This document shows, one piece after another, positions 2,640 to 43,645 of a stretch of DNA of 45,301 nucleotides (position 1 is the stretch's first letter; each line of letters opens with the position of its first letter). The stretch is from a bacterium (lineage in GTDB: Bacteria > SAR324 > NAC60-12): the NCBI GenBank assembly GCA_965233585.1, contig CBDDTI010000530.1, positions 1 through 45,301 on the forward strand, given 5' to 3'. Under the pieces are notes generated by a model, which saw only the letters and a list, made by a program, of their open reading frames with translations, made no database searches and was not told the origin of the DNA. Position numbers and translations under genes: made by a program.

Positions 2640-2699
2640 GAACTCCCTCCCAGCGTCTGCCTAGTCTGTTGTTGCCGTGGCCATGTACCTTTCCGGAGG

Positions 2700-5600: not shown

Positions 5601-5875
5601 CCTACGTATGTCTGCCACCAGGAATTTCCATTCATAAATCCGGCCTCCTATATGCATCTGCAATTTCCTTTCGCCATAGCATTTGATTCGGGAACCATTT
5701 GCGGCGATGAGTTCTTTTTTGAAGCGGCGTGCCTTGCCTCTCTTGCTCCGATGCTGGCACGACGCTGACCTCGGCTCCGGTATCGATCAGGAAAGCCCTG
5801 TTCGTTTTTGCGTCGTGTAGGGTGAGCGAGCCGGCCGCTACGGACGCTACTGGCGACCGGCTATCCCGTTTTCCA
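2700..5875 (-). pseudogene. pol: Gypsy pol pseudogene (PR-RT-RNaseH-IN)
   Basis: FLIDTGAEVS protease (5632-5892 ORF), YMDD RT and TADAS RNase H (4323-5663), HHCC + DDE integrase (3135-4292). Frameshift near 5715-5735, stops at 4323 and 3135. The GPY/F module continues past 3135. Left bound approximate. Confidence 0.9.
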
Positions 5876-10836: not shown

Positions 10837-11598
10837 ATGGCCAAGGTAGAGGAAGAAGCCACAGTAGGCATGCTGTCGGTCAAATTGCCAACATTCTGGC
10901 CAGACATGCCGGAAGTATGGTTCGCCCAGGCCGAAGCGAACTTCCGGGCAAGAAGGATCACCAGCCAGAAGTCCAAATTTAACCTGGTTGTGGTGGCGTT
11001 GGACGCGGACACGTTGAAGGGCGTACTAGACCTGATCGAACGGGAACCCGATGAGGAGTCATACAACCGGCTGAAGGCAAGGCTGGTGCAGGCCTACAAG
11101 TTGTCGACGGTCGACAAGGTCAAGCAGTGCATGGAACTGCCGCTGTTGGCAGAGGAGAACCCGATCAAATTAGCGGACCAGATGATCGCGTTGACCAGGG
11201 ATGCTACCGCAGAGGATATCGTCAAGACGATGTTCCTGCTTAAGCTACCAGATTCGGTCCGCAAGGCCATGTGGGCGGAGCCGCTAAAGGACTGGGCCGA
11301 GATGAAGGCCAGGGCAAAAGGGCTATGGCATGCAGAGAAGACCAAACGCCAGGCTGCCACGTACGAAGTAGCAGGCGCCCGCACCATCAGCCAAGACGAC
11401 GAAGTAGAGACGAACGCTGTCCGGTTTAAGCCTAAAGGTAAAAATAACCAAAATTCTAAAAAGTTTAAAGACTTCGCAGGTACGTTCTACCAACGACCAA
11501 ATGGCCCGTGCGTGTTCCACGAGTTCTACGGACAATCTGCAACCAGGTGCCGTTCACCATGCAGTCAGGCGGGAAACGGGAAAGCCGGGCGTCAGTAG
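10837..11598 (+). CDS. gag: Gypsy Gag (253 aa)
   Basis: VKLPTFWPDMPEVWFAQAEANF N-terminus typical of short-Gag Gypsy lineages; C-terminal CVFHEFYGQSATRCRSPC Cys/His motif. Confidence 0.9.
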   Translation: MAKVEEEATVGMLSVKLPTFWPDMPEVWFAQAEANFRARRITSQKSKFNLVVVALDADTLKGVLDLIEREPDEESYNRLKARLVQAYKLSTVDKVKQCMELPLLAEENPIKLADQMIALTRDATAEDIVKTMFLLKLPDSVRKAMWAEPLKDWAEMKARAKGLWHAEKTKRQAATYEVAGARTISQDDEVETNAVRFKPKGKNNQNSKKFKDFAGTFYQRPNGPCVFHEFYGQSATRCRSPCSQAGNGKAGRQ

Positions 11599-14500: not shown

Positions 14501-14711
14501 TAAAGTCCTACAGAAACAGGGTAAGTACTTCGTCATACAGTGCGGAGAGAGAGAAGAGAGCGTTAGCGTTGACAGATTGAAGCCTATTATACAGCGTATT
14601 ATACACGGGCGCACATTATACAAGGGTAAATACGGTAATTGGATTGTGATGTCATTTAGCTATTTAGCAAAATTACAGTCCATATTATGTAAATATTTAC
14701 ATAAAAAATAA
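11508..14711 (+). CDS. pol: Gypsy Pol polyprotein (PR, RT, RNase H, IN); last ~40 codons are read-through into non-element DNA
   Basis: DTGA protease, YMDD, STDAS, H..H..C..C zinc motif, VDLVG/SDRG/NGLVERFH integrase, PYTGPY module. Confidence 0.93.
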   Translation: MRVPRVLRTICNQVPFTMQSGGKRESRASVASIAAGSLTLHDASSNKTFLIDTGAEVSVVPATEQERRKAPMEKELVAANGSRIRCYGEKKVRFHVGSRTYEWKFLVADVKRSLIGADFLTHSSLLVDLRNKQMVHPDDLNATPLQQTKHRSRISGLTFAASARPSPLSKLFAEFPTVTVPNFKIEHPKHAVRHTIETRGQPIRAKARPLPPQKLAAAKANFAEMAASGIVRRSNGPWSSPLHVVTKKDGTFRMCGDYRRLNTVTTPDRYSIPLIADLTSRLQGKKFFGKVDLVKGYHQIPVAEQDIAKTAITTPFGTYEFLRMPFGLKNAGQTFQRMMDEILSDLDYLFVYMDDVLVASRSMEEHLEHFRELFRRLTAHDLVVSPAKCQFGKKQIEFLGHTVTKDGIQPLPEKVAAINAYPVPSSMDELRRFLGMVNFYNRFIPNAAKIMKPLYEATTAENCRKQKNGKERACTELKTSKKLIEWNDEMRKAFLEAKTALAKATILRHPRPGAEIALSTDASGEAIGAVLQQRPKEGGDWEPLAYFSKKLNPPERKYSAFDRELLAVYLGVRHFRHYLEGRDFPIFTDHRPLTFAMAKAAEPWSHRQARHLEYISQYSTDIRYVAGADNAVADALSRAAIEEIRLGIDFSKMAELQRQDPETRAYKTSVTALRWEEIEVSNGQQKLLCDVATGVPRPLVPAAMRREVFDLVHGLSHPGTTATVKIMKNKFVWHGIAKDVWAWARACIGCQTAKIHRHNRAPLTKFERATARFAHVHVDLVGPLPASKGHTHLLTVIDRFTRWPEAIPLAQTDTASIGRAFALHWVARFGVPSDITSDRGAQFTSDMWKALAESLGSKIHHTTAYHPQSNGLVERFHRSLKAALRARLTTPSWLDELPWVMLGLRTMPKEDLGTSVAEMVYGSTLTVPGTFVGPSSNSDAAEHLQNMRNMAGRLVPAPDAWHGTKAIAITKGLDEAEYVFVRRDASHSPLQTPYTGPYKVLQKQGKYFVIQCGEREESVSVDRLKPIIQRIIHGRTLYKGKYGNWIVMSFSYLAKLQSILCKYLHKK
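11571..11620 (+). other. -1 ribosomal frameshift signal (gag to pol)
   Basis: Slippery heptamer G GGA AAC (11571-11577) in the gag frame; pol is in the -1 frame; downstream GCCGG..CCGGC stem. Confidence 0.8.
14585..14637. mobile_element. End of a pogo/Tc1-like MITE family
   Basis: TTATACAAGGGTAAATACGGTA terminus, also at ~16280-16301 and, inverted, at ~43397-43470. Confidence 0.6.
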
Positions 14712-21085: not shown

Positions 21086-21629
21086 GTAAAAGCGGATGAC
21101 AGAAACTTGTTTTTAGATGTTTTCGGCCCGAATTCATCTAAATTCATCTAAATGCGTTCTAAATTCATCTAAATTCATCTAGATGCGTTCTCGTTGCAAG
21201 CAAAACGTCAACTGATTCAATCTAAAATCATCTAAATGCACACCGATTTCTGGTGCGTGCACCAAAAGTTTGGTGCCTGCATGGCTGTGTCTAATGCTGG
21301 CATGAAAAATTTGGTGCGTGCACGAAAAGTTTGGTGCCTGCATTGCTTCGTCTAATGCTGGCATGAAAAGTTTGGTGCGTGCATGAAAAGTTTGGTGCCT
21401 GCATTGCTCCGTCTAATGCTGGCATGAAAAGTTTGGTGCGTGCATGAAAAGTTTGGTGCCTGCATTGCTCTGTCTAATGCAGGCATGAAAAAGTTGGTGC
21501 ACGCACTAAAAATTTCATGCACGCATCAAAATTTTACTTGTCTGCATTACTTTTTCTGGTGCCGGGATCTCAATTTTGATGCTGGCGTGAAATTTTAGAT
21601 CCCGGCACCAGAATGTCAGTGGTCCATAG
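21086..21629 (+). repeat. Left terminal inverted repeat (544 bp)
   Basis: Reverse complement of 41120-41724; contains AATTCATCTA 10-mers and four 61 bp units. Confidence 0.95.
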
Positions 21630-22010
21630 TTGAGTAAATTGGAGAAAAGAAGCAGAGCTTTTTTCTTTTTTACCATAACTGGTGTTGCAATGTCACAATG
21701 TTCTTCTTCATTTTGTGTAAATTTTCTTGCTGTAATGGTATCAGTAAACGAGCGATTTTTATCAATAATTTAATGTGATTTTTATCAATAATTTAATTAA
21801 TTGTGTTTTTTGTTTTTAGCACAAAAAGGTTTTATATAAATTTGATTTCTCGAAAAAGTTGTATGGTTCCTTGGTATTTTTTACCATGCAATTTTAATTT
21901 TTTCCAAAAATCACCTTTGAACTGACCGCGATTTTTTCTGGTGTTTTCTACATAATATTTTTGCGCAAAGCAGATGTTTCCTTTTTTGTTCTTTTTATAA
22001 ATTCTTCCAA

Positions 22011-22183
22011 TTTCTAGAACATTCCTATCATTTAGAAACAATTAGGATTGGAGGTATTTTGTAAAAGAATTTTTTAATTTTTGACAAGATGCATTTTTCA
22101 ACCTGTCCGCAATTTTTTCTAGGGTTTTCTAGAAAGTTCCTTTGTAATAAGGTATATAAGCAGCCTGAACATCACATTTCATT
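22011..22183 (+). promoter_or_regulatory. Putative Pol II promoter: two heat-shock elements, TATA box and Inr
   Basis: TTCtaGAAcaTTC (22012-22024); TTCtaGGGttTTCtaGAAagTTC (22117-22139); TATATAAG (22153-22160); TCATT (22179-22183); ATG at 22221. Confidence 0.7.
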
Positions 22184-22220: not shown

Positions 22221-22832
22221 ATGACTGACGAAACAGGAATTAGAGACATGTCTGGTTATAGATCCATCATTCCTCCATTCCCAGAAACGCAGATGACCGA
22301 GTCCTGGATGAAAAACGATAGTCAGATGACAATAGCAAATTCTTCACCCGTTACAAACGATGAATCGGAAAATAGTGACACGAGTGGTTATAAAACAATC
22401 ATCCCTCCATTTCCTGAAACTCAGCCGACTGATGCCTGGATTGCCGATGAAAATCAACCAAAAATAGAAACTCCGAATCCATTGTCTTACACCGTACCAA
22501 ACTGTTTTAATTGGTCACCGTTGACGCACCAAAGGTCTTACCATGTTAAAAACATTCTAGAGAATTTGATGGCAAACGTCTCTTACCTCGTTTTTGAGCT
22601 CGAAAAACTAAAGTTGAGTTTTCCCATTGATATGACTCGTGAAGATGCTCACAAAGAAGAAAAGTTATTGGAGAGATCGATTGAAAAATTTCGACAAATG
22701 GCTAGACAGGCGAGAAAATTAAAGAGGGAAATTATGGGTATGTTAGAAGATGGGGTGTATGTTAACCCGCAAAATTACAACCGCTCCAAATACTCCGCGG
22801 CCGCTTCTCTTGAATTTGAAATACAAGAATGA
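22221..22832 (+). CDS. Hypothetical protein with duplicated N-terminal motif and C-terminal coiled-coil-like region (203 aa)
   Basis: ATG ORF after a TATA promoter; SGYRSIIPPFPETQ / SGYKTIIPPFPETQ repeat. Confidence 0.75.
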   Translation: MTDETGIRDMSGYRSIIPPFPETQMTESWMKNDSQMTIANSSPVTNDESENSDTSGYKTIIPPFPETQPTDAWIADENQPKIETPNPLSYTVPNCFNWSPLTHQRSYHVKNILENLMANVSYLVFELEKLKLSFPIDMTREDAHKEEKLLERSIEKFRQMARQARKLKREIMGMLEDGVYVNPQNYNRSKYSAAASLEFEIQE

Positions 22833-23149: not shown

Positions 23150-24742
23150 TTATTTAGGGTTTTGTATAGCTAGATTCATCATGATTTTTTCATTTGTTTC
23201 AAAATTAATCAATTCTCCGTCAAGTCTTTTTAACTGAAAATGCAACAAATCCAGTCGACTTGTATTACACTTTATGTATTCCAAATTTTCAAAATGCGTC
23301 GTCACATAATTGTCTTGTTCCTCGGCTCTATTAATTGGTATAACTTTTAATACAGGGTAAAACTCGTCTCCAATTACCGAGTGATTGACGAAATTGGCAT
23401 AGCAGATCATCACTCCCGGATATAGATAGTGCGGATCTAGACGTTCGTCACTTATAAATTGATTACTTTCATCCGCCAAAACAATGTCATCATCTTGACT
23501 TATTCCTAGCAATAATCTTATTTCATGCGGCACTCTTATCCTTACTACCAAGGAGCGATTGAATTGATTGCCGACCCGTTTTACTTTAAAACGGTCTTTA
23601 TGCGCGGAAATTTGAATGAGACTTTGTAAATCTTTGCTCATACCATTAGACATGGCCTCGATTAATTCATCCGTTGTTTTGATAAACCTCTTCTCAATGC
23701 AAAAGCAAAATTGCATTGTTTCAATCATTACCCCGATTTTCACAGGTGGAAATGTTTCTGTTGGGTCAGGGTTTTGCATGGGCTGTTGCGATATAAATTC
23801 TTTTTTCTCCGGTCCCATAACAATATATTCTTCTTTGATTCCCAAAATGTTTTTAAATTCGGGCGGTATCAGCACTTTTACCTCAGGTGATTTAAATTCG
23901 GCATCGTACGTCGACGGTCCGGTGTAAATTACTCGAAAAAAGATATCGACCGATTCTTTTGTTTTCTCCGTTTGCCCAAATTCAACAAAATTACGTACTA
24001 CGCTGTCTCTTCCGTCGTTTAAGCAATTTAATAAATAAGCAAATGTTTTCTGCTGATCAAGTTTGACCTCGATTTCTTGCTTGAACGGGTCTGTACTTAC
24101 TTTAATTTTCTTATCAAAAACGCTTGACGGAACGCTGTTAACACGATTTGGAAAGGAGATGTCGGCTAAGGCTATTTTAGCTCCTTCGTTCAAATAAATG
24201 GGATGGCTCAAATGTACCTCGAAATTGTTGTTTTTCTGCGCAGGTTTTATGTTGTCGCCCATTTTTGAGTCGACGCGAATGTGCTTTGTCAAATATGACA
24301 TCGCTCGTTTTGTTTTTCGCAAATGAAGTAAAACTAGACTCGGCTGACCCGATTTTAGTTTTAGAAGTTTGTCGGACGCGTCTAGAAACTCAATGCCCAC
24401 TGATTTTATTGAAGTGTTTTGAATAGGATAATATCGTATGTTGCTTAAAGTATGGTAGAAATATTTCCGTTTTTTGCTTGAAGGCAAGTCGGCCACGCAT
24501 AAGATGTGAGAATTCTCGTTTGAGCTTGTAGACACAATGTTGGATTTAACCTGCACCACGTCAAAAACAAAATCTTGTTTCACGTTTAAATGCAGACCAA
24601 AAGCTACAACCCCAACTTCCCAATCTCTTCTTTTGTTTAATTCTAAATTTTTCGGTAAAAAATTGTTAAAACGCGTTAGCGTGTTTACGTAACAATCAGT
24701 GCTGGCGTTTGAAATGCAATATATAAGATGTCCTCCTTTCAT
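23150..24742 (-). CDS. Minor capsid (penton, PX-like) protein with two tandem jelly-roll units (530 aa)
   Basis: SNAS..Y.NT...F.N.LP....L....WEVGV N-terminal motif, repeated at residue 148 (DSK..NNNFEVHLSHPIYL...KIALADISFP). C-terminal YANFVNHSVIGD...PVLKVIP...LEY motif. Confidence 0.8.
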   Translation of the reverse strand: MKGGHLIYCISNASTDCYVNTLTRFNNFLPKNLELNKRRDWEVGVVAFGLHLNVKQDFVFDVVQVKSNIVSTSSNENSHILCVADLPSSKKRKYFYHTLSNIRYYPIQNTSIKSVGIEFLDASDKLLKLKSGQPSLVLLHLRKTKRAMSYLTKHIRVDSKMGDNIKPAQKNNNFEVHLSHPIYLNEGAKIALADISFPNRVNSVPSSVFDKKIKVSTDPFKQEIEVKLDQQKTFAYLLNCLNDGRDSVVRNFVEFGQTEKTKESVDIFFRVIYTGPSTYDAEFKSPEVKVLIPPEFKNILGIKEEYIVMGPEKKEFISQQPMQNPDPTETFPPVKIGVMIETMQFCFCIEKRFIKTTDELIEAMSNGMSKDLQSLIQISAHKDRFKVKRVGNQFNRSLVVRIRVPHEIRLLLGISQDDDIVLADESNQFISDERLDPHYLYPGVMICYANFVNHSVIGDEFYPVLKVIPINRAEEQDNYVTTHFENLEYIKCNTSRLDLLHFQLKRLDGELINFETNEKIMMNLAIQNPK

Positions 24743-26248: not shown

Positions 26249-26971
26249 TTAACAATTTTCAATTTTTTTGACGCACCTGCTTAAGGCCATCGGACTAACG
26301 CCTAATTGCTCGGCTAAACGTGATAAGCTTTTCGGCTTTTCCTGATCAACCCTACTCCGTTGTTCTCTTAAAAAGACGTGCGCGCATGCCGCGATTAGTG
26401 TTTTTGGCGAAAAAACAAACTTTTTTTCGTGTTGCTTTACTTTCTCTCTAATTTCCTTCAACTCCTTGTAGCTTAGATTTAAAGAGTGAAGAAAATATTC
26501 GCACATTAAATTTGGGCTGTAGAAAGAGTCGTCGTTTTTAAGATATTGCCACACTTTGTCCTGCTTGACGCCGGTTATGGCACATAAATCTTTCATCGGT
26601 CGCGGCACCCCCGACTCTATAAGCGCGGAGTAGATGCACATTACCGCTAAACTTTCTAAACAAACACCTCTTTTCCCTCTTTTCCCGCTAGCGTCCCATT
26701 TTTTGGCGATGACGCGTTTTAAATCCGCGCATTCGATATTGCACTTATAGCATACCCTTTGCATTGTCTCATCAGTAAAATTGTTTTTGTCGCAAGTCAC
26801 ATCCTCGCTCATTTTCTCCGTTTTAATCGATTCGAGCCGATAGTCATACGAGGCATAGAGCCGATCATGCATCACGAGCCCGCAATCTGTACATACTTCA
26901 CACCCGTTTGAAAAATCATCCACAATATTGTAATGAGAACAAGTCCTGTTGAAATTATGAAAGCGAGGCAT
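26249..26971 (-). CDS. TFIIB: TFIIB-like transcription initiation factor (240 aa)
   Basis: Zinc ribbon CSH..VDDFSNG.EVCTDCGLVMHDR; two cyclin-like repeats LAVMCIY....GVPRPMKDLC and SPKTLIAAC...LAEQLGVS...LSR. Confidence 0.88.
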   Translation of the reverse strand: MPRFHNFNRTCSHYNIVDDFSNGCEVCTDCGLVMHDRLYASYDYRLESIKTEKMSEDVTCDKNNFTDETMQRVCYKCNIECADLKRVIAKKWDASGKRGKRGVCLESLAVMCIYSALIESGVPRPMKDLCAITGVKQDKVWQYLKNDDSFYSPNLMCEYFLHSLNLSYKELKEIREKVKQHEKKFVFSPKTLIAACAHVFLREQRSRVDQEKPKSLSRLAEQLGVSPMALSRCVKKIENC

Positions 26972-27014
26972 GTTTATTTCTCCGCACGCGCTGCAAAACT
27001 GAAACGCAAATCAA

Positions 27015-27575
27015 CTATCGATCGCTTTTATATTGTTTCAAAAAATCTATAATAAAGTCCAAACTATGTTTGACCGCATCTTCGGACTTGGCCCCGATGA
27101 TTACCATCTTGCCTGTGGAAAATATTAAAACCGTGTTGGCTTCAAAAGTCACAAACATGCCCGGGAAACGTTCGGGATTGAAGCGTACTTTTTTCACGTA
27201 GCTCTCCTTTCGAAGTTTATCAAAAACGTCCGGCAGCGGTATCTCAAAGCCCGCACGAAAGGAACAAGTTAAATTGTTTATTTCCCATGTTTGCACAAAG
27301 AAACGATTGCTGATAATGTCCGTCAGCAGACTTAACGATATTTTTATATCCGCTCGCGACGGCACTTTGGTAATATTGACATGATATGATTTGTTGTTTC
27401 CGCGGGTCTTGAAAATGGTGTAGACGTATTGTTTCCTCACTACAGTAAAATTACTAAAAACTTTTTGTGACACATCTTTATTTAAGGATAACGGCCCCTC
27501 ATCCGTAAGAATAATTGTGCAGCTAAGCTTTATATTTGTCACAGTGACGTGCTCCGTGTTGTCTAAAAATGTCAT
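27015..27575 (-). CDS. TBP: TATA-box-binding-protein-like factor (186 aa)
   Basis: Two-repeat core: VTNI.LS...NF....YTIF...VNIT and INNLTCS...FNPERFPGMF...TVLIFSTGKMVIIGAKSE. Confidence 0.9.
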   Translation of the reverse strand: MTFLDNTEHVTVTNIKLSCTIILTDEGPLSLNKDVSQKVFSNFTVVRKQYVYTIFKTRGNNKSYHVNITKVPSRADIKISLSLLTDIISNRFFVQTWEINNLTCSFRAGFEIPLPDVFDKLRKESYVKKVRFNPERFPGMFVTFEANTVLIFSTGKMVIIGAKSEDAVKHSLDFIIDFLKQYKSDR

Positions 27576-28909
27576 CGTTGATTAATGGCGGTGTCGGCGG
27601 TTTAAATGTGGATTTCAATGAATTGCAGGGTGATAGTTTGAATGCGCATGCGACCCCCCTCGAAGACACGGATTTAATATCAGGTCGTACTGTGCTATAT
27701 AATAGCGTGACTCCCGTCGAAGATTTAGAAGATGTTACGTTTTCAATTCCTTCCGACCCCGAATGCGCTTTTGTTTTAAATCAGACGAGGCTAGAGGGTT
27801 ACTTTGTGGTAAAGACCGACAGCGGCGAGGGTGTAACAGACACTGACACGCCAACAATTACTAACCATTATTGCGCCGCATTATTCTCGCAAATTGAAGT
27901 CCACCTTAACGGAACTCAAATATGTGATTTGAGTGCTCCTCTTTCTTATTCGTACAAACACCACATTGACTTTCTCCTGTCCTATAACAATAATGTATTA
28001 ACAAATGTGGGACGGTCCGAAGGCTTTTGCCGAACGCACCACGACAAATGCTTTGACAATATTACCACGACCGGTAAAATGTGCCAATGCATCGCGGAGA
28101 ATCGCGCGAAAATAATAAACGACAAAAAAGTTTATTTTAGCTCAACTTTGCCCGCAGATATTTTTTACACCGACAAATATTTACCTCCGAATGTGGAAAT
28201 CACTGTTGTATTACGCAGGTTCAACCCGTGTTTCGGGCTGCTTCAAGATAATCCGAACAAAGTCTATCGCATTCGTTTAAAGGAATTAAAACTTCGCATG
28301 AGAAAAGTGTTACCGTGCGAGCGTGTGCGAAACAGGCTAAACGCCGAACTGCTAAAAGGTCGACCATTTTTTCTGCCTTTTAAAGACACGCAGATGAAGC
28401 ATTATCTGATCCCGTCTGGTTCCCTTAGTTTCTCTGCAAATCACATCAACAATAGCGAGATGTTGCCGCAACAAATTATTTTCTGCATGCTTCGAAGCGA
28501 CCTTTTTGCCAAGGGACCGAGCGATCAATTTCCCTTTAAATTTAAACACGCCGATTTAGGATCCGTCATTTTAAAAAACAATGGAAGACTTCTCATGCCT
28601 AGACCTATAGAATGCAAGATACTTACAGGCGATTATATGGAATTGTACGACCATTTTCAAAGCAACGTCGGCGGCAGAAATTGTATTTCACCCCAAGCTT
28701 TTACAGAGGGTCAGATGTTTCTCGCGTTCGACCTGACTCCGGATAAATGCCTATCCTTTCACAATCACGTCGGAGTGTCCGGAAATTTAGAACTAGACTT
28801 GACTTTTAACACCCCCACCAGAACCCCCCTAACCCTGATTTCTTACGCTATTTATAATGCCGCCATTTCCATCGACAGCAACCTTCAGGTTACCAAAATA
28901 AAATATTAA
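27569..28909 (+). CDS. Major capsid protein 1 (double jelly-roll, PY-like; 446 aa)
   Basis: LFSQIEVHLNG, ADIF..DKYLPPNV, LKLRMRKV, PF.F.H, AFDLTPD, GNL.L.L.F motifs; position next to the protease. Confidence 0.88.
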   Translation: MSSLINGGVGGLNVDFNELQGDSLNAHATPLEDTDLISGRTVLYNSVTPVEDLEDVTFSIPSDPECAFVLNQTRLEGYFVVKTDSGEGVTDTDTPTITNHYCAALFSQIEVHLNGTQICDLSAPLSYSYKHHIDFLLSYNNNVLTNVGRSEGFCRTHHDKCFDNITTTGKMCQCIAENRAKIINDKKVYFSSTLPADIFYTDKYLPPNVEITVVLRRFNPCFGLLQDNPNKVYRIRLKELKLRMRKVLPCERVRNRLNAELLKGRPFFLPFKDTQMKHYLIPSGSLSFSANHINNSEMLPQQIIFCMLRSDLFAKGPSDQFPFKFKHADLGSVILKNNGRLLMPRPIECKILTGDYMELYDHFQSNVGGRNCISPQAFTEGQMFLAFDLTPDKCLSFHNHVGVSGNLELDLTFNTPTRTPLTLISYAIYNAAISIDSNLQVTKIKY

Positions 28910-28978
28910 AATTGCACACCACCGACTCCCTCTTTTTAAGAAGAACAGAAAACTACAGACTAGCATGCATTTTCGACA

Positions 28979-30313
28979 ATGACTGAAAAGGGTGGCATCG
29001 GAGGTCTAGGGTTCGAGCAGGACGATTTGACAGAACAAGCTCTTGATCTGCACGCGCCGCTCGGGGTCGATATAAGCCTTGAAAAAGGCAATGATGTGGT
29101 CTACAACAGCGTTTCCAGCGTTTCAAACACCGGACCGATCGAATTCATCATCCCGCGAGACGAAGAGTGTTCCATCATTCTGGATCAGACTAGATTAATA
29201 GGGCATTTCGTTGTCAAGACAGCAAAGGATGAAAATGTCGGACCCGACGATCGAGTCTTTCTGGCCAATAATTTCGCGAGCAATCTATTTAGCGCGGTTG
29301 AAATCTACATTAACGGTACTCAAGTCTGCGACTTGAGCACGGCAAATTCCTACCCTTTCATAAACTTTATCCAGACCGAGTTGTCGTTTGATAGAGAGGC
29401 CAAACAGAGTCAGCTAAGAGCCGAAGGTTATTTTGAAGAAAAAGAAAACGATATTGGAGCTTGCGAGCCCGGTATAAATCAGCGTTTAATACACCGTCGA
29501 AATCTTATACTTCACGGCAAAAAAGTTTATTTCTGCTCTCGATTGGGGGCGGATATTATGTATACGGATAAGTATATGCCACCGAATGTCGACATCAAGA
29601 TTAAGCTTATTAGAAACAGTCCGACATTCGGTATTCTTCACGCCGAAGATGACAAATCTTTTAAAATCGTTTTAAAGGATTTAAAGTTGAAAATGAGAAA
29701 AGTTTTGCCGGTCGAGCAGCAGAGAAAGCAATTTAGGATGAAAATGTCTCAACAGCCCTGCTATATACCCTTTAAGCTGAGTCAGTTGAAGGTTTTTGTG
29801 ATTCCAGCCGGCGTCACATCGTACACCGTTACCAATATTGCCTCACAAATACTGCCCAAACAAGTTATTTTCACCCTAATTCACAACCAAGCCTTGACGC
29901 ACGATAGCAAATTCAACCCGTTCGACTTTCAACACTTTGATCTTAATTATTTCAATCTTATTAAAAACGGACAATGCGTCTTCCCAAAAGCTTTTCAGCC
30001 GGATTTTGATGATGATAACTACATGGACCTGTACAGACACATGTACGACAGCACGGGTTTCGGCATTTCAAATAGTTCTTGCGACATTTCGCCCGCGGTT
30101 TTTAAGAGAGGAAGATGTTTTCTAACTGCCGATTTGACCCCCGATCGCTGCAACAGTTTTCACATTCACCCCGACGAAAAAGGCAAGTTGGATTTGGAAT
30201 TAGGCTTTAAAACAGCCAAGCCTCACCCCATCTACCTGCTAGCCTACAGCATTTTTAATTCCGGAATTAAAATAGAGGAGAACGGCCAAGTTGTTAGGGC
30301 CGAAGAGCGATAA
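28979..30313 (+). CDS. Major capsid protein 2 (paralogue; 444 aa)
   Basis: GPIEF.IP, LFSAVEIYING, DKYMPPNVD, NPFDFQHFDLN, DLTPD motifs; colinear with MCP1. Confidence 0.9.
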   Translation: MTEKGGIGGLGFEQDDLTEQALDLHAPLGVDISLEKGNDVVYNSVSSVSNTGPIEFIIPRDEECSIILDQTRLIGHFVVKTAKDENVGPDDRVFLANNFASNLFSAVEIYINGTQVCDLSTANSYPFINFIQTELSFDREAKQSQLRAEGYFEEKENDIGACEPGINQRLIHRRNLILHGKKVYFCSRLGADIMYTDKYMPPNVDIKIKLIRNSPTFGILHAEDDKSFKIVLKDLKLKMRKVLPVEQQRKQFRMKMSQQPCYIPFKLSQLKVFVIPAGVTSYTVTNIASQILPKQVIFTLIHNQALTHDSKFNPFDFQHFDLNYFNLIKNGQCVFPKAFQPDFDDDNYMDLYRHMYDSTGFGISNSSCDISPAVFKRGRCFLTADLTPDRCNSFHIHPDEKGKLDLELGFKTAKPHPIYLLAYSIFNSGIKIEENGQVVRAEER

Positions 30314-30798
30314 TGGCCGGTTTGAGCAACGTATTTCTAGATCGGTTTTTATCCCCACTTTGCAAGAATTTCATCGGCACCTTTGCAGTCGACACGATAC
30401 CTTCAAACTTGTGGAACACTAGCTGTTGCGCCATCGTCAATCTTTCGGTTTCAAGCCATCCCGGCAGTCATTTCATCGCCTTTTTTATTAATAAGCAAAA
30501 CTATTTGTATTATTTCGACAGCTATGCACTACCCGTGCCCGCCTATAATCACCACCTCATCCATTTTTTGAAAAAATGGGAAAATTGCGGCAGAATAAGA
30601 CATGTCCTGGACCGATCGATTCAAGCTTTCGATTCATTGTTTTGCGGGTGGTATGCTGCCGCATTCTGCATGTTTGTCAATGCATACGCAAACGCGAATC
30701 CGCGGCACTTTTGCACTTTTTTTAATCCCGTTAATTTACGCGAAAATGAAAAACGCGTCAAACATTTAGTTAATTGTTTGCAAGTCAAGCTTTATTAG
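30313..30798 (+). CDS. Adenain/Ulp1-like cysteine maturation protease (161 aa)
   Basis: IVN......GSHF (His), YFDSY (Asp), IQ.....CG.Y (Gln, Cys); TAATG stop-start overlap with MCP2. Confidence 0.93.
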   Translation: MAGLSNVFLDRFLSPLCKNFIGTFAVDTIPSNLWNTSCCAIVNLSVSSHPGSHFIAFFINKQNYLYYFDSYALPVPAYNHHLIHFLKKWENCGRIRHVLDRSIQAFDSLFCGWYAAAFCMFVNAYANANPRHFCTFFNPVNLRENEKRVKHLVNCLQVKLY

Positions 30799-30921
30799 AA
30801 TATACAGAATTGCCTATAATGTTTTAGTTAATAAAAAGCCGCAAATCTGATTTCTGTTCTGCAGCAAAGCTGCAGTCGCCGCCGTTGCCGCGGCTGTTGC
30901 CGCGGTTGCACACACGCATCT

Positions 30922-32134
30922 TCACTTGCCGCCGAGTTTGGCATTGATGGGGAAATCCAGACCTTGACACAGCTCCACCATACCCTCGGTAAATTCATCC
31001 AACTTGTGCAGAGGAAAATTCATCCTAATTATCTTGGTGCTGTGGCTTTTGTTGTTGTCGTTATACTGCGGGAAAAAAGATTTTTTACGCATTTTTCCGC
31101 TCAATTTTTTTCTATTTACATTTTTATTTCGCCTTACCTGCTCTTTAGAGACGTAAAATACCGGCCACACGCTAAGGCCCGCAGCACGCTGGATATGCCT
31201 AACGCCGCTAACTCCAATTACCATCCTAGGGTTGGATGCAATCACTTTGCTCATGGGGGCAAAAGGCAAGCTCACCGATCGCGATGACACCTCCTTGTTT
31301 TTAAAAGCCTCAATAAACTTTTTCATGGTGGCTGGATTAGGGTAGATGTACTGTTGAGCAAAACAGTGTGAAAAGTTTTTTAATTAAAAATACGCTGAGC
31401 TGATTTCAAACTGTTTTACTCACCCCGTCGTCTCCAATAAAATATTGTTCGCGATGGCTGTGGCTTTCAAGCCACTTGGAAAAGTTTACCTCCGCGGTTT
31501 TTACGCGCTCGTTAAAATCCCATTTGCAGGGTCGAAACAACTCCTCTTGCTTTTTCCTTGTCAAATTAATCCCATCCACCTTGGACGAAACCGGCTCCGG
31601 CTCGACATAATTTTTCCTCTTTGAATCGGGTAATTTCTTTTTGCCTGAATCGGACCTTGGTCTTTTTTTCGCGCAATACGGCTTTCTTTGATCCTCCATC
31701 TCCGGTTCTTCAATATCAGTCGGAGCATCGTCATCATCTTCGTCATCATCGTCATCCTCGTTATCATCTTGGGCAGCATCAGACTCAACATCGTTATCAT
31801 CGTTATCAGAGCCGTCTTGCATGTTCTCTGAGCCGGATTCTTCAGACTCGTCATCGCTTGAATTCTCGTTGTCTCTCATGTCCTCATCCTTCTCCATGTC
31901 TGAGTCGGAATCTTCTAATTGCTTATGTCCTTTGTTCGCAGATGACGAACGGGATTTGGCAAGTTTACTACTTTTTTGCTCTTTGGTGTAAACTTTTGAC
32001 GTTTTTTCAACGTGGCTTTTTTCGAACGGTGTCTTTTTCGCGACCTTTTTATGCGCAGACTTCCCCTTTTTTTTGTACAAGATCGTCTTGCTGCCTTTGC
32101 CATTGCTTTCAGATGATGTAGCCAGTTTACCCAT
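30922..32134 (-). CDS. Predicted spliced gene (exons 32134-31424 and 31350-30922; 379 aa) with basic/acidic low-complexity N-half and globular C-half
   Basis: GTGAGT donor at 31423 and CAACAG acceptor at 31351 (73 nt, phase 0) join two ORFs in frame: FIGDDG|YIYPNPATMKKF. Confidence 0.75.
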
Positions 32135-32215
32135 GACGCGACCGATGTTTTATCTTAGGTGTGGATGTGATGCTAGTCAAAATATTATTGGTGTTTCACC
32201 AAAAGCGCCAATTGG

Positions 32216-32337
32216 CTTTTATACTATTTTGACTTGTATAATGGCAAATGCTAGAATATTCTCGATGAAATTGTGGTCAACTTTTAACCCATTTTAAGGC
32301 AAAAAAAGTTCTAGAAGAAACTAGAAAAATCTAAAAG
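32216..32337 (-). promoter_or_regulatory. Putative Pol II promoter: TATA box with upstream heat-shock elements
   Basis: Minus-strand TATAAAAG (32223-32216); CtaGAAtaTTCtcG (32251-32264); TTCtaGAAgaAACtaGAAaaATC (32309-32331). Confidence 0.62.
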
Positions 32338-33259
32338 CAATTATTTTTATAAAAGTTTTTGAAAAAAATTTAAAAATGCTCATTTCTATTTTTTTGTCGG
32401 TAAAATGACCTAAAATTAGGGCATCTTTTGTAAAATGGAGAATTTTTTCCTCCTTTTTAGATGCTGCTCCTTGGCACGTGCTTTTTTTTTCTCACTTGAG
32501 CTAATGGTTTTTCTGCCTAATGGTTTTCAACGCTAATTTTCCTTCCAGAAAATTGTCATTCTTTATTTCTTTGACCGCAAAAAAGGGTGCAAAGACCCGA
32601 TTGTTAACCTTTTAATAATTAATCTTTTTTCCTTTTGCTGATTTATTTTAATGGGTGTGCTGCTAAAAAATTGACTGTTGTTTAAAAGAAAAACAATTTT
32701 TAGCAAACACGCTGTCTCATATCTTGTCATTAATTTGCTCCAATTTCGGCGCTTTTGCTTTAAGCCTTAATGCATGTGCGGAAAAATGAACAAAAATAAA
32801 GGAAAATTGCACGGAAAACACAATCTGACGTCAGGTTGCGGGGATAAAAAGGATTTACAAGAAAGGTTAAAATTTTCTCCAAAATTAATTATCTTTTGAA
32901 AAAAACCAGGTTTAATTTTTGCGCCTTTTTCTACTATTAAAAAGTTTACATGAATGACCCTTTTTGAGATAAGGAGTCATTCCAAAATCTAAACTGAAAC
33001 CGAAAAGATCCTAGTTTTATCTTTTAGACACTTGAAAAAATCGTAAGTAGACAAAAAAGTCTTTACAATTTTTAAACATTGAAGTTTTTTTAAAAATATT
33101 TTTAAACATAAAGTTGGTTAAAGTCTAAAAATTTTTTACACAAATTGAGCTTACGCAAAAAAAATTTAACAAGTGCTCAAAGTCTTAAAATTTTTTACCC
33201 AAAATTGAGCTTACGCAAAAAATCTTAAACCTGATTTCAACCACCCTGCTTTCTAGACA

Positions 33260-34126: not shown

Positions 34127-34762
34127 ATGACGCACAAGTGTGAAACGTGTCACATATCGTTTTCCAGAAAGAGTCGTCTTGTCAATCATTTAAAATTAAA
34201 ACACAGAAATCAAGCAAATCATAGTGGTCGCGACAAGTTAAGAAAGTGCCCGTTTTGTGAACTTAAATACAGTGATAAGAACGAGTTATCGTCACACGTA
34301 GATTCGAATCACGCGGAATCAAGGGTATTTTCTAAAAGGCAAGGAGCCATTGGCGACAAAGTTTGCATTTTCCAACAAGAACTGACTCACCTAAAAAGCT
34401 CTTTGCAAGATTTTTGCAACTCTAAGCAAACGATCGAAAATGTGTTGAATCTCGTAAAAAGTCAATTTACACATCGGGTGGTTTGTCGAATAAGTATAAC
34501 AATCACGGCAGATTACGAGATACAGGGTTTAGATGAAGAAAGTCAGGGAAAAAGCGTCGACATCGATTCTTTCACGTTACGGTCAAAAGGCGTCGCGGTC
34601 AACAAATATCAAAGCGATGAGCAGATTCGAGATAGGATAAAGTCACTTTTGGTTGGATCGGTGGAGAGGGAAGACGATTTGTTAACTAGAGGTTCAGGTT
34701 GGCGATTTGCTCAACTTCAAAGTTGCAGCGTTTTAATCTATGACTGTAGCAGTATTTTTTAA
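34127..34762 (+). CDS. Two C2H2 zinc fingers fused to the putative terminal-protein region normally at the pPolB N-terminus (211 aa)
   Basis: CETC..H..H and CPFC..H...H fingers; C-terminal RGSGW motif matching the GSGW motif of Polinton pPolB N-termini. Confidence 0.75.
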   Translation: MTHKCETCHISFSRKSRLVNHLKLKHRNQANHSGRDKLRKCPFCELKYSDKNELSSHVDSNHAESRVFSKRQGAIGDKVCIFQQELTHLKSSLQDFCNSKQTIENVLNLVKSQFTHRVVCRISITITADYEIQGLDEESQGKSVDIDSFTLRSKGVAVNKYQSDEQIRDRIKSLLVGSVEREDDLLTRGSGWRFAQLQSCSVLIYDCSSIF

Positions 34763-34764
34763 AA

Positions 34765-37700
34765 ATGAACAGCGACTCTGTAAACGTGTCCGAGTATTTA
34801 TTAAAGTGTCGAAGTGTTTTATGGAACAGAAAATACGATGAAAAGAACTTTCTATATTGTGTCATACAACATCTTTGGCCGGAAACGGCAAACATCAGAC
34901 GATGCGAAAAAATTCCCAAGGAGTATGAAAGTAAATTTAACTTGCAAGGTTTAACCTTTCCCCTGCAGTTTAGCCAGATTAGTAAGTTTGTTCGAATTAA
35001 CAAGCACCTACCGTTACGTATAAGAGTTCTTTTTGAAGGTGAACATCAACTGAGTGTTTTAGACGTTTTCTCCAATAGATCTGGCGAGAAAAATAAGAAC
35101 AAAAATACGCTAAATTTGCTAATGATTAAAAGTGATTGTCGAATTTCATCGGCCAATAAAGACAGCATTGACGTAAATGGCATTTCCAACGTAAAAGACC
35201 TTGAGCATCAGCACCATTTTTTCACTATTGCTAATTTAAATGGCTTTTTGAACAACCGAAAATCTGCTATGACCAAAGGAAGACGGCATAGAAGTCAGTT
35301 TTATTTTTGTGACAGCTGTTTAAGAGATTTTCGTTCGCACAAGAAACAAAAATTACACGAAAAAATCTGTCAAATGGATAAACAAGCGGTGATTTATCCG
35401 GAAAAGGGCAGTGTCTTGAATTTCGATAAGCAAAGAAATGCATTTAAAGCACCTGTAGTGGGATTTGCCGATTTTGAGTGTTTTATGGAAAAGTCAGAGC
35501 AAGAAGCAAAAACATGTAAAACATGCGGAAAAGCGTGGGTGACATGCGAATGTCAAGTGTCGGGATGCACTGAGCTGAGTAAACATCGAGCTTGCGGCTA
35601 TTCAATTTGTTTTGTTGATTCGGAAAACGAAGTATTTTATCAAGAAACGTACAGTGGAAAAGACGCTGTGGAAAATTTTCTATCAAAGCTGGATTATTTC
35701 GAAGAATTAGTGGAAGCGCGAAAGCAACGGTTCAAAAACACATCTCAAATTATAGCGAGCAAACATGATTGGGAAGAGTACCGCGCCGCCACGCTATGTC
35801 ATATTTGCAAAAAAGAATTTGATTCAGGCTCGCGATTATATAAAAAAGTGGTTGATCATGATCACGTCACCGGAAACATTGTTCAAGCGGCGCATTCTAT
35901 TTGCAATCTGCAACGACAGGGCCCATTTAGAACACCTATATACTTTCACAACGCCAAAGGGTAAGTACAGACTTTTTTTAATATTTATAATCCTTGACTT
36001 GAGGGAAAGTCATTTTAAATTTTTTTAATTTTTAGATATGACATAAATCTACTAGTAGAAAAATTGGACAAAGAGGCTAATTTGATGGCGAGTAACCAAG
36101 AAAAGTTTAGGACAATCACTATTGGAAAATTTCAAATTAGGGATTCTCTAGAGCACGTGCCATCCAGTCTTGATGCGCTCATGACCGATTTATGCAAGGA
36201 TGAGACGTTTACCTTTCCGATTCTCAAACAATTCGAGCCTTACAGGAGGCTGTGGACGCGACAAAAGGCGAAAGGTTTAAAATTATTGAAAAGAAAAGGA
36301 GTATATCCGTATGAATACTTTTCATCATATGAGTCAATTAAAAACAGTCAATTTCCACCAAAAGACGCTTTCTACTCGAGATTGAGCGAAGCCCACATCT
36401 CAACCGAAGATCATAAGCACGGCTATGAAGTGTACAAGTTTTTTAATTGTAAAAATATGGACGACTACATGAAGTTATATTGCGGACTGGATGTGATTTT
36501 GCTGGCTGAGATTTTTGTAAAGTATCGAGAAATGGTGATGAAGCACTTTGAGTTGGATCCCATCTACTATTTAGGTATACCTGGCTTGTCATTTGACATC
36601 ATGCTGAAAATGTTTCAAAATGAAGAAAGAAAAGACGAAGAAGAGATTAGTGCCGATTTTATGTCGAAACCACCGGGCTCATTGGACTTGTTTCACGATC
36701 CGGCAATGGAACAGTTTTTTACACGCGGCATTAGAGGAGGGCAGAGTTTTATAGCTACCAGACAAGCGACGGGTCAGGCCGATCCTAAAGCGAGCGGCGA
36801 GCATTTACTATATGTAGATGGTAATATTTTTTATTAAACGTCAAAGAAAAAAAGATTGATTAAAATTACGATACATTTTCAGCTAACAATCTTTACGGCA
36901 GCATGGAAACACGCATGCTGCCGGTGGGTGATTTTAAGTGGGTGCCAAAAAAGGTGATAAAAACATGGACGGACAAGGACATTTTGAATTTGCCTTCGCA
37001 AAGCAGGATTGGCTATGCTTTTGAAGTGGATTTGCACTATCCAAAAAAATATCATAAGGTAAAAAAATTGTTTTTTGCTAAACACCAACTGCTAGAAAAA
37101 ATTTTTTTATTTATTTTGCAGAGAGATGATCAATTTCCTTTGGCTCCTTACACTGACACAATAAACTTTGATGATCTGTCACCGTTTAACAAACAACTTT
37201 TGAAGAAGCACTGTCCGGCTGATTACAAAAACAAACGTTACAGTTCGCGAAAGCTTCTTGCCACATTCTACCCGCGACGTAAATATGTCGTCTTGTTAGA
37301 TAATCTAAAGTATTATTTGAGACGAGGGCTGAAGCTTACAAAAATCAGACGAGCGGTCAAGTTTGAGCAAAAAGACTTTTTAAAAAACTTTATCACAAAA
37401 ATTACAAAATTAAGGTCGGAGGCGAAAACTGATTTTGAATTACGTCTCTTCAAGTTGTTTGCCAATTCCACATTTGGCAAATTTATAGGTAAAAAAAAGT
37501 AATGGCTCCCTTTTTTCACAATAAAATGTTTAATTTTTTTTTCAGAGAACGCGCGAAACTACATCGAAATCGTGTTGTGCCACAATGAAAAGAAGCTGAG
37601 AAAGACTTGCATGGGTCAGCATGTTTCGAATTTGAAAGTCATAAACGAAAACCTTGTGGCTGTCATGAAAAAACCGGCCGTTATTGAAATGAAGAAACCG

Positions 37701-38333
37701 TTGGCGGTGGGGTTTGCGATTTTGGAACTATCCAAACTCTACATGTATCGATCGTACGACAAATTTAGACGTTACTTTGGAACGGAGAATCTAAAGTTGT
37801 GCTTTTCGGACACAGACTCGTTTCTGTTTCAAGTAAAATGTCAAAATTTAGTTAAAAAGTTAAAAAGAATGGAACACATGTTCGACTTCTCAAAATACGA
37901 TAAAGATCACGAGTTGTTTGACGATAGCAGAGCCAACCATTTGTTTTACTTCAAAGACGAGCTAAAAGGAAAGGCCGCAATTACTGAATTTATCGGCTTA
38001 AGGCCAAAATGTTACAGCATGACGGTCAAGGATTTGAAAACCCGAGGAGCCAGCGTAAAGAAAATTTGTAAGGGCCTTAAAAAAACTAGTATTAAAAATC
38101 ACTTGACCTTTGAGGATTACAAAAAATGTTTAAACGAATCAGCATTGGTATATAAGCCTCTTGTTAATATTAAATCAAAGAATCACAGAATGTCAACAAC
38201 CCACCAACGAAAAATTGCTCTATCTGCCATGGACACCAAACGTTATGTGCTTTCTTGCGGAAAGTGCACTTTGGCCTTAGGAAGTTGTCATGTAAAAAAA
38301 TGTTGTAAACATGAATGTAAGGAAATCAAATAA
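34765..38333 (+). CDS. polB: Protein-primed family B DNA polymerase, 5 exons (34765-35960, 36036-36820, 36883-37058, 37122-37488, 37546-38333; 1103 aa)
   Basis: ExoI ADFE, EndoVII-like CHIC..DHDH..H..CN insert, spliced FHNAKG|YD, RKGVYPYEY, spliced YVD|ANNLYG, KLFANSTFGK, SDTDS, LRPKCY. Confidence 0.95.
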
Positions 38334-38396
38334 ACGTATTGATAAAAATTGATGGTAATATCTTGTCTCTTTTTTGTGTCAAGAAAAATTAAAAAC

Positions 38397-39083
38397 ATGG
38401 ACGGATTTGATTTGCGCTTTAAGCTTCCATCTAACTTACTCGCGGTAGGTCCCACTTCTTGCGGAAAAACGTCATGGCTAAAAAAACTGGTTGAAGATAG
38501 GGCCGTAATGTGCTCGCCCGTTCCGGAATGTATGATTCTATTTTACAAAGAATTTCAACCGGCCTATGCTGATATGGAGCGAGGGATGAACGATGACGCG
38601 CGTGAGAAGAGGTTCTGCAAATTTTCATCCATGCCAGAATCGGTTGAAGAGATGAAAGATATACTGGAAACGTTCCCTAGAGCTCTTCCAAAAATTGTAG
38701 TATTTGACGATTTTCTTGATGAAGTAGGAACGGTGCTAAAGCACTTTTTCACGGTTTTAACGCATCATTATAATTGTTTGACAGTTTTTTTGTGTCAGAA
38801 CATGTTTAGCGCCAAAAGCGAACTCAGAATGCTCAGCATCAACTCGCAGTACATGATTTTATTCAACAATCCCAGAGACCGTAGCGCCGTCTCGCACCTG
38901 GCTAAACAGGTGTATCCGGGTAACGTGCATCGGCTAAACGATGCATATGCGGCAGCAACCGGTGAAAGACCTTATGGCTATTTACTGCTGGATTTTCATC
39001 AGCAGCAGAATAATTTGGTTCGATTAAGAAGTCATATTTTTCCGGACGAACAGCCTACAAGGGCGTACAACGTACGCACGTAA
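38397..39083 (+). CDS. A32/FtsK-like genome packaging ATPase
   Basis: Walker A GPTSCGKT, Walker B IVVFDD, HH......QN, NSQY..LF.NPRD, PYGYLLLD. Likely start MDGFDLRF at 38397 (ORF open from 38349). Confidence 0.93.
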   Translation: MDGFDLRFKLPSNLLAVGPTSCGKTSWLKKLVEDRAVMCSPVPECMILFYKEFQPAYADMERGMNDDAREKRFCKFSSMPESVEEMKDILETFPRALPKIVVFDDFLDEVGTVLKHFFTVLTHHYNCLTVFLCQNMFSAKSELRMLSINSQYMILFNNPRDRSAVSHLAKQVYPGNVHRLNDAYAAATGERPYGYLLLDFHQQQNNLVRLRSHIFPDEQPTRAYNVRT

Positions 39084-40978: not shown

Positions 40979-41119
40979 GAAAAAGAAGATGAAAAGATAA
41001 AAATAAAATTTTCATATTTTTTGCAATTTCCTTAACTATTTAGTAACAGCATTCCGTTGAAGTTTATTGCAAAAAAAAAGAAAAGAAAAACCCCCGAGTT
41101 ATTGAGCACGTTTCTTCGT

Positions 41120-41724
41120 CTATGGACCGCTGACATTCTGGTGCCGGGATCTAAAATTTCACGCCAGCGTCAAAATTGAGATCCCGGCACCAGAAAAAGT
41201 AATGCAGACAAGTAAAATTTTGATGCGTGCATGAAATTTTTAGTGCGTGCACCAACTTTTTCATGCCTGCATTAGACAGAGCAATGCAGGCACCAAACTT
41301 TTCATGCACGCACCAAACTTCTCATGCCAGCATTAGACAAAGCAATGCAGGCACCAGATTTTTCGTGCACGCGCCAAACTTTTCATGCCAGCATTAGACG
41401 AAGCAATGCAGGCACCAAACTTTTCATGCACGCACCAAACTTTTCATGCCGGCATTAGACGGAGCAATGCAGGCACCAAACTTTTGGTGCACGCACCAAA
41501 TTTCTCATGCCAGCATTAGACACAGCAATGCACGCACCAAACTTTTGGTGCACGCACCAGAAATCGGTGTGCATTTAGATGATTTTAGATTGAATCAGTT
41601 GACGTTTTGCTTGCAACGAGAACGCATCTAGATGAATTTAGATGAATTTAGAACGCATTTAGATGAATTTAGATGAATTCGGGCCGAAAACATCTAAAAA
41701 CAAGTTTCTGTCATCCGCTTTTAC
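41120..41724 (-). repeat. Right terminal inverted repeat (605 bp)
   Basis: Reverse complement of 21086-21629 with five rather than four 61 bp units. Confidence 0.95.
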
Positions 41725-42809: not shown

Positions 42810-43396
42810 AAAAACCTACAAATATTTCAAGCTCCTTGACATGGTCGAAGAACAACAATTTCCCCAGCTTCAAATGCTAAAAAACTACGAATATTTCGAT
42901 TGTAGCTTCCTGAAGGTCCTCAACTTGGTTGGTGAATGACAATTTCCCCAACTTCAAATGCTAAAAAACTACGAATATTTCAGGCTCCTGGACATGGTCG
43001 GAGAGCAAAATTTCCCCAACTTCAAACGCTAAAAAACTACGAACAATTTCCCCTGCTTCAAATGTGAAAAAACTACGAATATTTCGATCATAGCTTCTGG
43101 AAGGTCCTCAACGTGGTGTGGTCGGAGAACAATTTCCCCTGCTTCAAATGCGAAAAAACTACAAATATTTCGATCATAGCTTCCTGAAGGTCCTCAACAT
43201 GGTCGGGGAACAATTTCCCCCACTTCAGATGCGAAAAAACTACGAATATTTCGATCGGAGCTTCCGGAAGGTCCTCAACGTGGTCGGTGAATGACAATTT
43301 CCCCAGCTTCGAACGCGAAAAAACTACGAATATTTCGATCCTCAATGTGGTCAGTGAACAACAATTTCCCCAGCTTCAAACGTGAAAAAATATGAA
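42810..43396. repeat. Tandem array of diverged ~60-80 bp units
   Basis: CAATTTCCCC.GCTTCAAA.GC.AAAAAACTACGAATATTTCGAT..AGGTCCTCAAC.TGGTC repeated about 8-9 times. Confidence 0.88.
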
Positions 43397-43645
43397 TACC
43401 GTATTTACCCTTGTATAATGCGCGCCCATGTATAATACGCACCCCCAAATTTCAGACCAAATTTTGAGAAAAAAAGAAAAATACATAAACTCCTCAACAG
43501 GAAGGTTCAATTGTATAACATTTATTTTTATTACCATGGGAAACTAACGAAATGATGGTTACAACATCTTTCACCTCCTTAGCTGTCAATAAAGCTTATG
43601 ATGCCGTATTTACACTGTATTTACCCGTACACAGTATTATATATA

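Follow-up and report, generated by a model that had tools for sequence, protein, structure and literature searches.

The minus-strand segment at 32216-32327 of the window (the whole 45,301-nucleotide stretch of DNA analysed here) is best explained as a Pol II promoter in which a TATA box is combined with an imperfect HSE-like site and a gap-type HSE. With moderate confidence, we read it as a functional, lineage-specific stress promoter of the HSF type for the gene that follows (gene 2), which is carried by a Maverick/Polinton-type element. A stronger sister promoter stands before gene 1 of the same element, and the presence of heat-shock-like promoters before two fast-changing genes suggests that host stress may switch the element on.

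The core of the gene 2 promoter is the TATA box TATAAAAG (32223-32216, minus strand), which agrees with the TATAWAWR core-promoter feature and stands before a gene with spliceosomal-type introns and an AATAAA. From its last base to the ATG at 32134 the distance is 82 nt, close to the figure of about 80 nt given in a preliminary description of this DNA. Judged from TATA spacing only, transcription would start about 30 nt past the box, in the region 32195-32186 (minus strand). Upstream of the TATA box, a proximal HSE-like site (32267-32248, minus strand) is built from four 5-bp units, ATC/GAA/TTC/GCA, which in 5-bp register read cATCg, aGAAt, aTTCt and aGCAt. Within this site, the minus-strand CGAGAATATTCTAG (32264-32251) corresponds to the plus-strand 14-mer CTAGAATATTCTCG, which had been placed 28 bp upstream of the TATA box; the 14-mer is read exactly at 32251-32264, and its end is indeed 28 bp from the start of the box. 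With two perfect units only, the proximal site is by itself not a canonical HSE.

The degenerate phased array proposed further upstream was located as a TTC/GAA array at 32327-32303 (minus strand), about 85 bp upstream. Its units, TTC/GTT/TTC/GAA/TTT, read tTTCt, aGttt, cTTCt, aGAAc and tTTTt in 5-bp register, with ATTTTTCTAGTTTCTTCTAGAAC at 32330-32308 on the same strand. The stretch 32326-32309 reads TTCTAGTTTCTTCTAGAA, that is TTC-N7-TTCNNGAA, and fits the gap-type HSE pattern exactly. A perfect three-unit HSE (NGAANNTTCNNGAAN) is absent from 32216-32337 in the window copy, where the best match is 8 of 9.

Behind the promoter, gene 2 consists of three exons on the minus strand: exon 1 (32134-31424, 237 codons, followed by a GTGAGT donor at 31423), exon 2 (31350-31138, 71 codons) and exon 3 (31065-30922, 47 codons and a TGA stop). 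The two introns, 73 and 72 nt long, are GT..AG and both in phase 0, and the joined exons give one open frame of 355 codons, which bears out the spliced acidic/basic gene of the preliminary description. An AATAAA at 30796-30791 (minus strand), about 125 nt after the stop, would be the likely poly(A) signal. This succession of TATA box, 82-nt leader region, ATG, two phase-0 introns, stop and AATAAA agrees with the anatomy of a Pol II unit. The encoded product runs from a basic stretch through a long acidic stretch and basic NLS-like stretches to a conserved C-terminal part of about 150 residues.

Comparison with other copies agrees with the exon structure of gene 2. In element families B and C (see below), the exon-coded parts are conserved and the intron positions hold stops or split the match, while the first exon in distant copies always has a ...REAYFF.DD-type motif at its end, shortly before exon 2. 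Genes 1 and 2 have neither a Pfam match nor a usable protein atlas hit; PHROGs gave one weak match (E 7e-4), between the low-complexity exon 1 of gene 2 and a family of unknown function, and the ORF of exons 2-3 has only 16 relatives. DNA-type contigs from four runs, examined over 30800-32500, pass unspliced through both introns and are uninformative on expression; their sole pile-up is the GAT/GAC-rich acidic repeat at 31726-31768.

The contig that makes up the window (C530) is eukaryote-type DNA within an assembly of 12 Mb and 747 contigs, 92% complete, that is filed as one prokaryote. Across the whole assembly (G000), the eukaryotic contigs hold at least ~45 Maverick copies of three families as well as genes that look like those of a host, such as the short-chain dehydrogenase ORF at 5901-6842 of C535. 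In the window, the region 21086-41724 is a Maverick/Polinton-type element of 20.6 kb, recognized by its inverted repeats with matching ends and by its gene content. The terminal inverted repeats (21086-21671 and 41078-41724) are about 590-650 bp long and 92-94% complementary; at the ends as set in the analysis, no clear target-site duplication was seen.

Among the genes of the element, an ORF at 24748-25857 matches the rve integrase (E 1.9e-10), with a chromodomain match just below the Pfam cut-off. A TBP-like and a TFIIB-like gene adjoin each other at 26249-27575 (minus strand) and are core genes of all three families (35 contigs). That the element encodes its own TBP and TFIIB, as previously proposed, is upheld by matches of the former to PF00352 (E 1e-16) and PDB TBP (3e-17) and of the latter to human TFIIB (E 2.3e-6). 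Where the TBP gene ends, it contains a further copy of TATAAAAG (27032-27025), 54 nt ahead of the start of TFIIB. The two capsid genes (27569-30313, plus strand) are tandem paralogs of about 445 residues, 40% identical to each other. For the second capsid protein (28979-30313), the AF2 model (pLDDT 77) is a double jelly roll that matches PBCV-1 Vp54 (E 1.8e-15), the mavirus MCP (~1e-12) and the Sputnik capsid, and in the viral library a Cotesia bracovirus protein (22% identity, E 3.9e-24), adomavirus LO7 and an adintovirus protein. A separate penton gene was not identified in the element; a 530-residue ORF at 23150-24742 (minus strand) is without a match.

The remaining genes are a small protease-like ORF (30313-30798), to which two protease chains matched only at E ~0.1, an ATPase ORF (38352-39083) with the Walker A motif GPTSCGKTS, a weak Pfam match and no PDB match, a C2H2 zinc-finger protein (34127-34762), and a protein-primed DNA polymerase split into four consecutive ORFs (34765-38333, plus strand). 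Two of these polymerase ORFs (36085-37502) match PF03175 (E 2.6e-7 and 5.3e-6), and the gaps between the four measure 120, 66 and 108 nt. Such gaps (66-120 nt) look like introns rather than damage, since the capsid genes of all near-identical copies are intact and gene 2 itself has introns of 72-73 nt.

At least three element families, A, B and C, are present in the assembly. Family A comprises the window, nine copies that are 95-98% identical in the promoter, C213 (81%) and C58 (72%); capsid identity is 72-74% for family B and 53% for family C, which has about two dozen copies. Common to the three families are the conserved part of gene 2, TBP, TFIIB and both capsid genes, and gene 1 and p256 are present in family A only. 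The fastest-changing genes within family A are genes 1, 2, p256 and p504 (53-78% identity in C58); capsid, polymerase and ATPase are 81-96% identical in the same copy. As for more distant relatives, none of the MCP was found in viral_contigs or genome_contigs, and a 23-base pattern from the start of gene 2 likewise had no match in these two collections. The MCP alignment against metagenome_contigs had three short contigs at 27-28% identity as its sole matches, and the protein collection holds 79 MCP relatives, all of them metagenome proteins, some of which reach 76-89% identity.

Motif conservation across copies, to which the preliminary description had pointed, is observed in the gene 2 promoter: the core triplets are invariant even in the copies diverged to 81% and 72%. 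The alignment covers 12 copies, 10 of which are 95-100% identical and hence little informative. TATAAAA is invariant in 12/12 copies, the eighth TATA base being altered in one, and so is AGAATATTCTAGCATT of the proximal site, the two diverged copies included; in the same site, one copy has ATCc for ATCg. In the distal array, TTC and GAA cores are also kept in 12/12 copies, with changes falling on the spacer, where TTCtaGAA becomes TTCcaGAA in C213 and TTCttGAA in C58. In C58, moreover, the last unit of the distal site is TTC, which turns it into a perfect three-unit HSE (cTTCttGAActTTCt). Comparing the window with C213 and C58, the core is unchanged at 24/24 positions, the spacers at 12/16 and other upstream sequence at 139/215 (65%). 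The difference between core and rest (one-sided Fisher p = 5.7e-5) applies to two diverged lineages only and to blocks picked after inspection.

The sister promoter (promoter 1) lies at 21935-22160 on the plus strand, before gene 1 (22221-22832), and combines three HSE modules with a TATA box. The modules occupy 21935-21954, 22001-22025 and 22116-22140 (plus strand), the last two each holding the perfect three-unit HSE TTCtaGAAnnTTC; the TATA box TATATAAG is at 22153-22160 (plus strand), with perfect HSEs 13 bp away. The earlier statement that both genes with an intergenic TATA box also have HSE-like sites is correct, the sites of gene 1, with two perfect three-unit HSEs, being the stronger. 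The non-coding DNA of the element totals 3.9 kb, and of the TATA-like words in it only those of promoter 1 and of the gene 2 promoter (promoter 2) are correctly oriented with a start codon 60-90 nt downstream. Promoter 1 is conserved in 10 aligned copies, C213, C58 and C640 among them. Here too changes fall on spacers (GAAagTTC to GAAatTTC; TTCtaG to TTCtgG or TTCcgG), and the core is unchanged at 34/42 positions vs 133/228 elsewhere (p = 0.0036). Between the HSE modules there is also a palindrome, TTGCGCAA (21961-21968), kept in 9/10 aligned copies.

Both promoters contain the same oriented module, TTCTAG-N4-TTCTAGAA. It is found 19 times in the 12-Mb assembly, 9 times in copies of promoter 1 and 10 times in copies of promoter 2, with all 19 pointing toward the TATA box and the gene and none elsewhere in the 12 Mb. 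In the window, the TTCTAGAA octamers are all within promoters 1 and 2 (3/3). On the small contigs, the combination of a perfect HSE, a TATA box and an ORF was encountered in 31 cases, 22 of them being gene 1 and one being gene 2 of C58.

The degenerate units GTT, ATC and GCA of promoter 2 are as invariant as the perfect units, so the constraint could belong to a different, longer site. The conserved TTCTAG blocks would then be real regulatory sites read by a factor other than HSF (another host factor, or a DNA-binding protein encoded by the element, either the TBP/TFIIB-like pair or the C2H2 zinc-finger protein of 34127-34762), with an HSE likeness that is partly coincidence. We consider this unlikely, although the conserved blocks extend beyond the HSE cores, the module of promoter 1 lies within a larger repeated unit (CTGACCGCGATTTTTTCTGGTGTTTTCTAGA), other intergenic palindromes (CACGTG and TGACGTCA) are conserved as well, and the element has DNA-binding proteins of its own. 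HSF binding predicts what is seen here, namely units phased by 5 bp, TTC alternating with GAA and substitutions confined to the two spacer bases, and the two perfect three-unit HSEs of promoter 1 argue in the same direction. In addition, a two-finger protein would read about 6 bp rather than a phased array of 20-25 bp.

It could also be that the TATA box alone is functional and that the HSE matches arose by chance in AT-rich, T-run-rich DNA, looking conserved since the copies are young. The preliminary description had proposed to set HSE-like matches against shuffled sequence, and this comparison splits according to the pattern. Simple HSE dimers are equally frequent in both: CNNGAANNTTCNNG has 1 match in the window vs 1.09 expected (at least one in 70/100 shuffles), TTCNNGAA has 21 vs 23.75 and GAANNTTC has 14 vs 22.93. 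With two-unit counts at or below expectation, the exact dimer is not rarer than chance. The gap-type pattern TTC-N7-TTCNNGAA, on the other hand, is found 4 times vs 1.02 expected, a number reached by 1/100 shuffles, and three of these four matches fall within the two TATA promoters of the element.

Longer arrays were counted with a four-unit score (at least 10/12 bases and all four key G/C), whose threshold was set after seeing the site. It gives 8 hits at 5 loci in the window vs 1.95 and 1.82, respectively, in 200 block shuffles, the hit count being reached in 0/200 and the locus count in 3/200. Separate four-unit sites paired within 120 bp number 23 in the 9.2 Mb of small contigs; 12 of the 23 are copies of the gene 2 promoter, and elsewhere such pairs amount to only about one per Mb. 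Perfect three-unit HSEs occur three times in the window, at 618, 22012 and 22127, and their density on the small contigs (0.022 per kb) is no higher than on bacterial contigs. The TTAAAGAAA motif has 0 matches in the window.

We regard a chance origin of the HSE matches as improbable. It would accommodate the dimer counts, the near-identity of 10 of the 12 copies and hence their little information, families B and C, which do without such sites, and the scoring thresholds, which are post hoc. It does not sit well, however, with a core kept at 24/24 positions against a 65% background in two diverged copies, with an oriented 14-base module that two unrelated element promoters share and that is seen nowhere else in the 12 Mb, or with the enrichment of the gap-type pattern and the rarity of paired four-unit sites elsewhere.

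That the distal array serves instead a second, rightward promoter is very improbable. The array would then be paired with the plus-strand TATAAAAG (32348-32355), which lies 20 bp from it, and would drive a leader for the replication genes; a conserved GTAAGT (33043) with an acceptor (33256) suggests a spliced leader for rightward genes. But this TATA box is not conserved, CATAAAGG standing in its place in several near-identical copies and in C213, on which ground a divergent-promoter role was rejected as the main reading. The module points leftward, toward gene 2, being gene-directed as in promoter 1, and a better candidate box for a rightward promoter, TATTAAAAAG, is found near 32935, downstream of the conserved TGACGTCA.

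The intergenic region to the right of the promoter (32338-33259, 0.9 kb) is itself well conserved among the window, C213 and C58. It contains the invariant palindromes CACGTG (32475-32480) and TGACGTCA (32826-32833), TATTAAAAAG near 32935, an invariant GTAAGT (33043-33048) and a tttctag acceptor (33250-33256) just before an ATG at 33260. Here the replication genes may have a rightward promoter of their own, with a spliced leader.

The HSF-type promoter of gene 2 is restricted in its distribution. Among seven representative loci of families B and C, none has an HSE upstream of the TATA-like box; the orthologous gene is preceded, at a comparable distance, by a box reading TATAAAAAG or TTTAAAAAG, and one locus (C93) has a single 8-of-9 site, downstream of its TATA-like box. 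The absence of HSEs from these orthologous promoters makes the feature specific to family A.

Mechanistically, host stress would cause trimeric HSF to bind the TTC/GAA arrays of the gene 2 promoter and, together with host TBP at the TATA box, to start transcription of gene 2. Gene 1 would be switched on likewise from the stronger sister promoter (21935-22160), and the first expression step of the element would thereby be coupled to host stress. HSF binding, heat inducibility and an early role of both gene products are predicted here from the DNA sequence. The proposed cascade, with host HSF acting first and viral TBP/TFIIB later, would be compatible with this anatomy. More tentatively, and with considerable doubt, one might suppose that a single Maverick/Polinton lineage wired two fast-evolving early genes to host HSF as a stress-triggered switch, its own TBP and TFIIB then redirecting Pol II to the TATA-less packed genes. 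A search for HSF domains returned none, with prokaryotes as the control genomes, so that it proves nothing; as to heat-shock genes for comparison, those that turned up in the assembly were HSP70 genes on bacterial contigs only.

In mavirus and endogenous mavirus-like elements, the promoters match the late promoter of the giant helper virus. The element described here would resemble mavirus as an integrated polinton-class element with a reactivation signal written into its promoters. The trigger would differ: for mavirus it is the transcription machinery of the co-infecting giant virus, whereas here a host stress factor is suggested, and the element has TBP/TFIIB of its own. To our knowledge, the helper giant virus of mavirus is the only well-known trigger for integrated Mavericks/Polintons in animals and other eukaryotes, and a search of the literature outside subscription journals on Mavericks/Polintons together with heat shock, HSE, TBP or TFIIB turned up no description of such a promoter. 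A conserved HSF-type promoter on two accessory genes leads to the concrete and cheaply testable hypothesis that host stress is the trigger, and yields defined pieces of DNA that can be used in reporter and binding assays. If true, this would be a eukaryotic integrated DNA virus with stress-triggered induction, a logic comparable to the SOS induction of prophages; if the HSF reading is wrong, the segment would simply be one more mobile-element TATA promoter.

In cellular heat-shock promoters, such as those of hsp70 and the small-hsp genes, HSE arrays lie close to the TATA box. The promoters of the element share with them nGAAn/nTTCn units that alternate in phase, lie tens of bp upstream of the TATA box, take either orientation and form several sites. 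Unlike them, they precede genes of a mobile virus-like element instead of chaperones, and the window copy of the gene 2 promoter holds imperfect or gap-type arrays only. In the excerpted text of PMC4552642, the gap-type HSE is given as nTTCnnGAAn(5 bp)nGAAn and quoted as functional, with moderate induction only; the same excerpt names the guanines as the most conserved HSE bases and reports that block substitutions are tolerated. The distal array, nTTCn(5 bp)nTTCnnGAAn, is the reverse complement of the gap-type HSE as stated there, a similarity by sequence alone.

Other mobile elements with HSEs are on record. According to excerpts of PMC13602373 and PMC8376061, ONSEN, a Ty1/copia retrotransposon of Arabidopsis, is activated by heat and carries HSEs in its LTR. 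Like ONSEN as portrayed in those excerpts, the present element is a mobile element with HSF sites in its own promoter, the sites here being predicted, through which host heat stress would switch it on. ONSEN differs in being a plant LTR retrotransposon with a single LTR promoter; the present element is a DNA virus-like Maverick of 20 kb whose accessory genes have two separate HSE promoters. An excerpt of PMC6927752 describes Caenorhabditis Helitrons that carry HSEs, searched for with NGAANNTTCNNGAAN as the canonical three-unit pattern. The likeness to these, as far as that excerpt goes, is that of a DNA transposon with HSEs. The Helitron HSEs are described there as rewiring neighbouring host genes, whereas the Maverick HSEs precede TATA boxes and genes of the element itself.

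HSE-like arrays were also observed at other loci. Paired arrays are present at C63:1766-1831, C150:7417-7472, C535:4804-4892, C332:3622-3760 and C728:6866-7005, and include TTCCAGAACTTTCCAGGAC-type repeats and, in inverted copies, two perfect TTCTAGAACTTTC sites separated by about 100 bp. Beside the paired HSE-like arrays on C63, C150, C332, C535, C591 and C728, no heat-shock gene was found. The window also holds two LTR-retrotransposon pol/gag regions, at 2683-5657 (minus strand) and 10837-14711 (plus strand), with RVT_1, RNase H, rve and DUF7041; both have 51-57% G+C in surroundings of 33-40% G+C. Outside the Maverick element, at 43041-43400, lies an 81-bp tandem repeat with TTCCGGAAGGTCC in each unit, which matches the three-unit HSE at 8 of 9.
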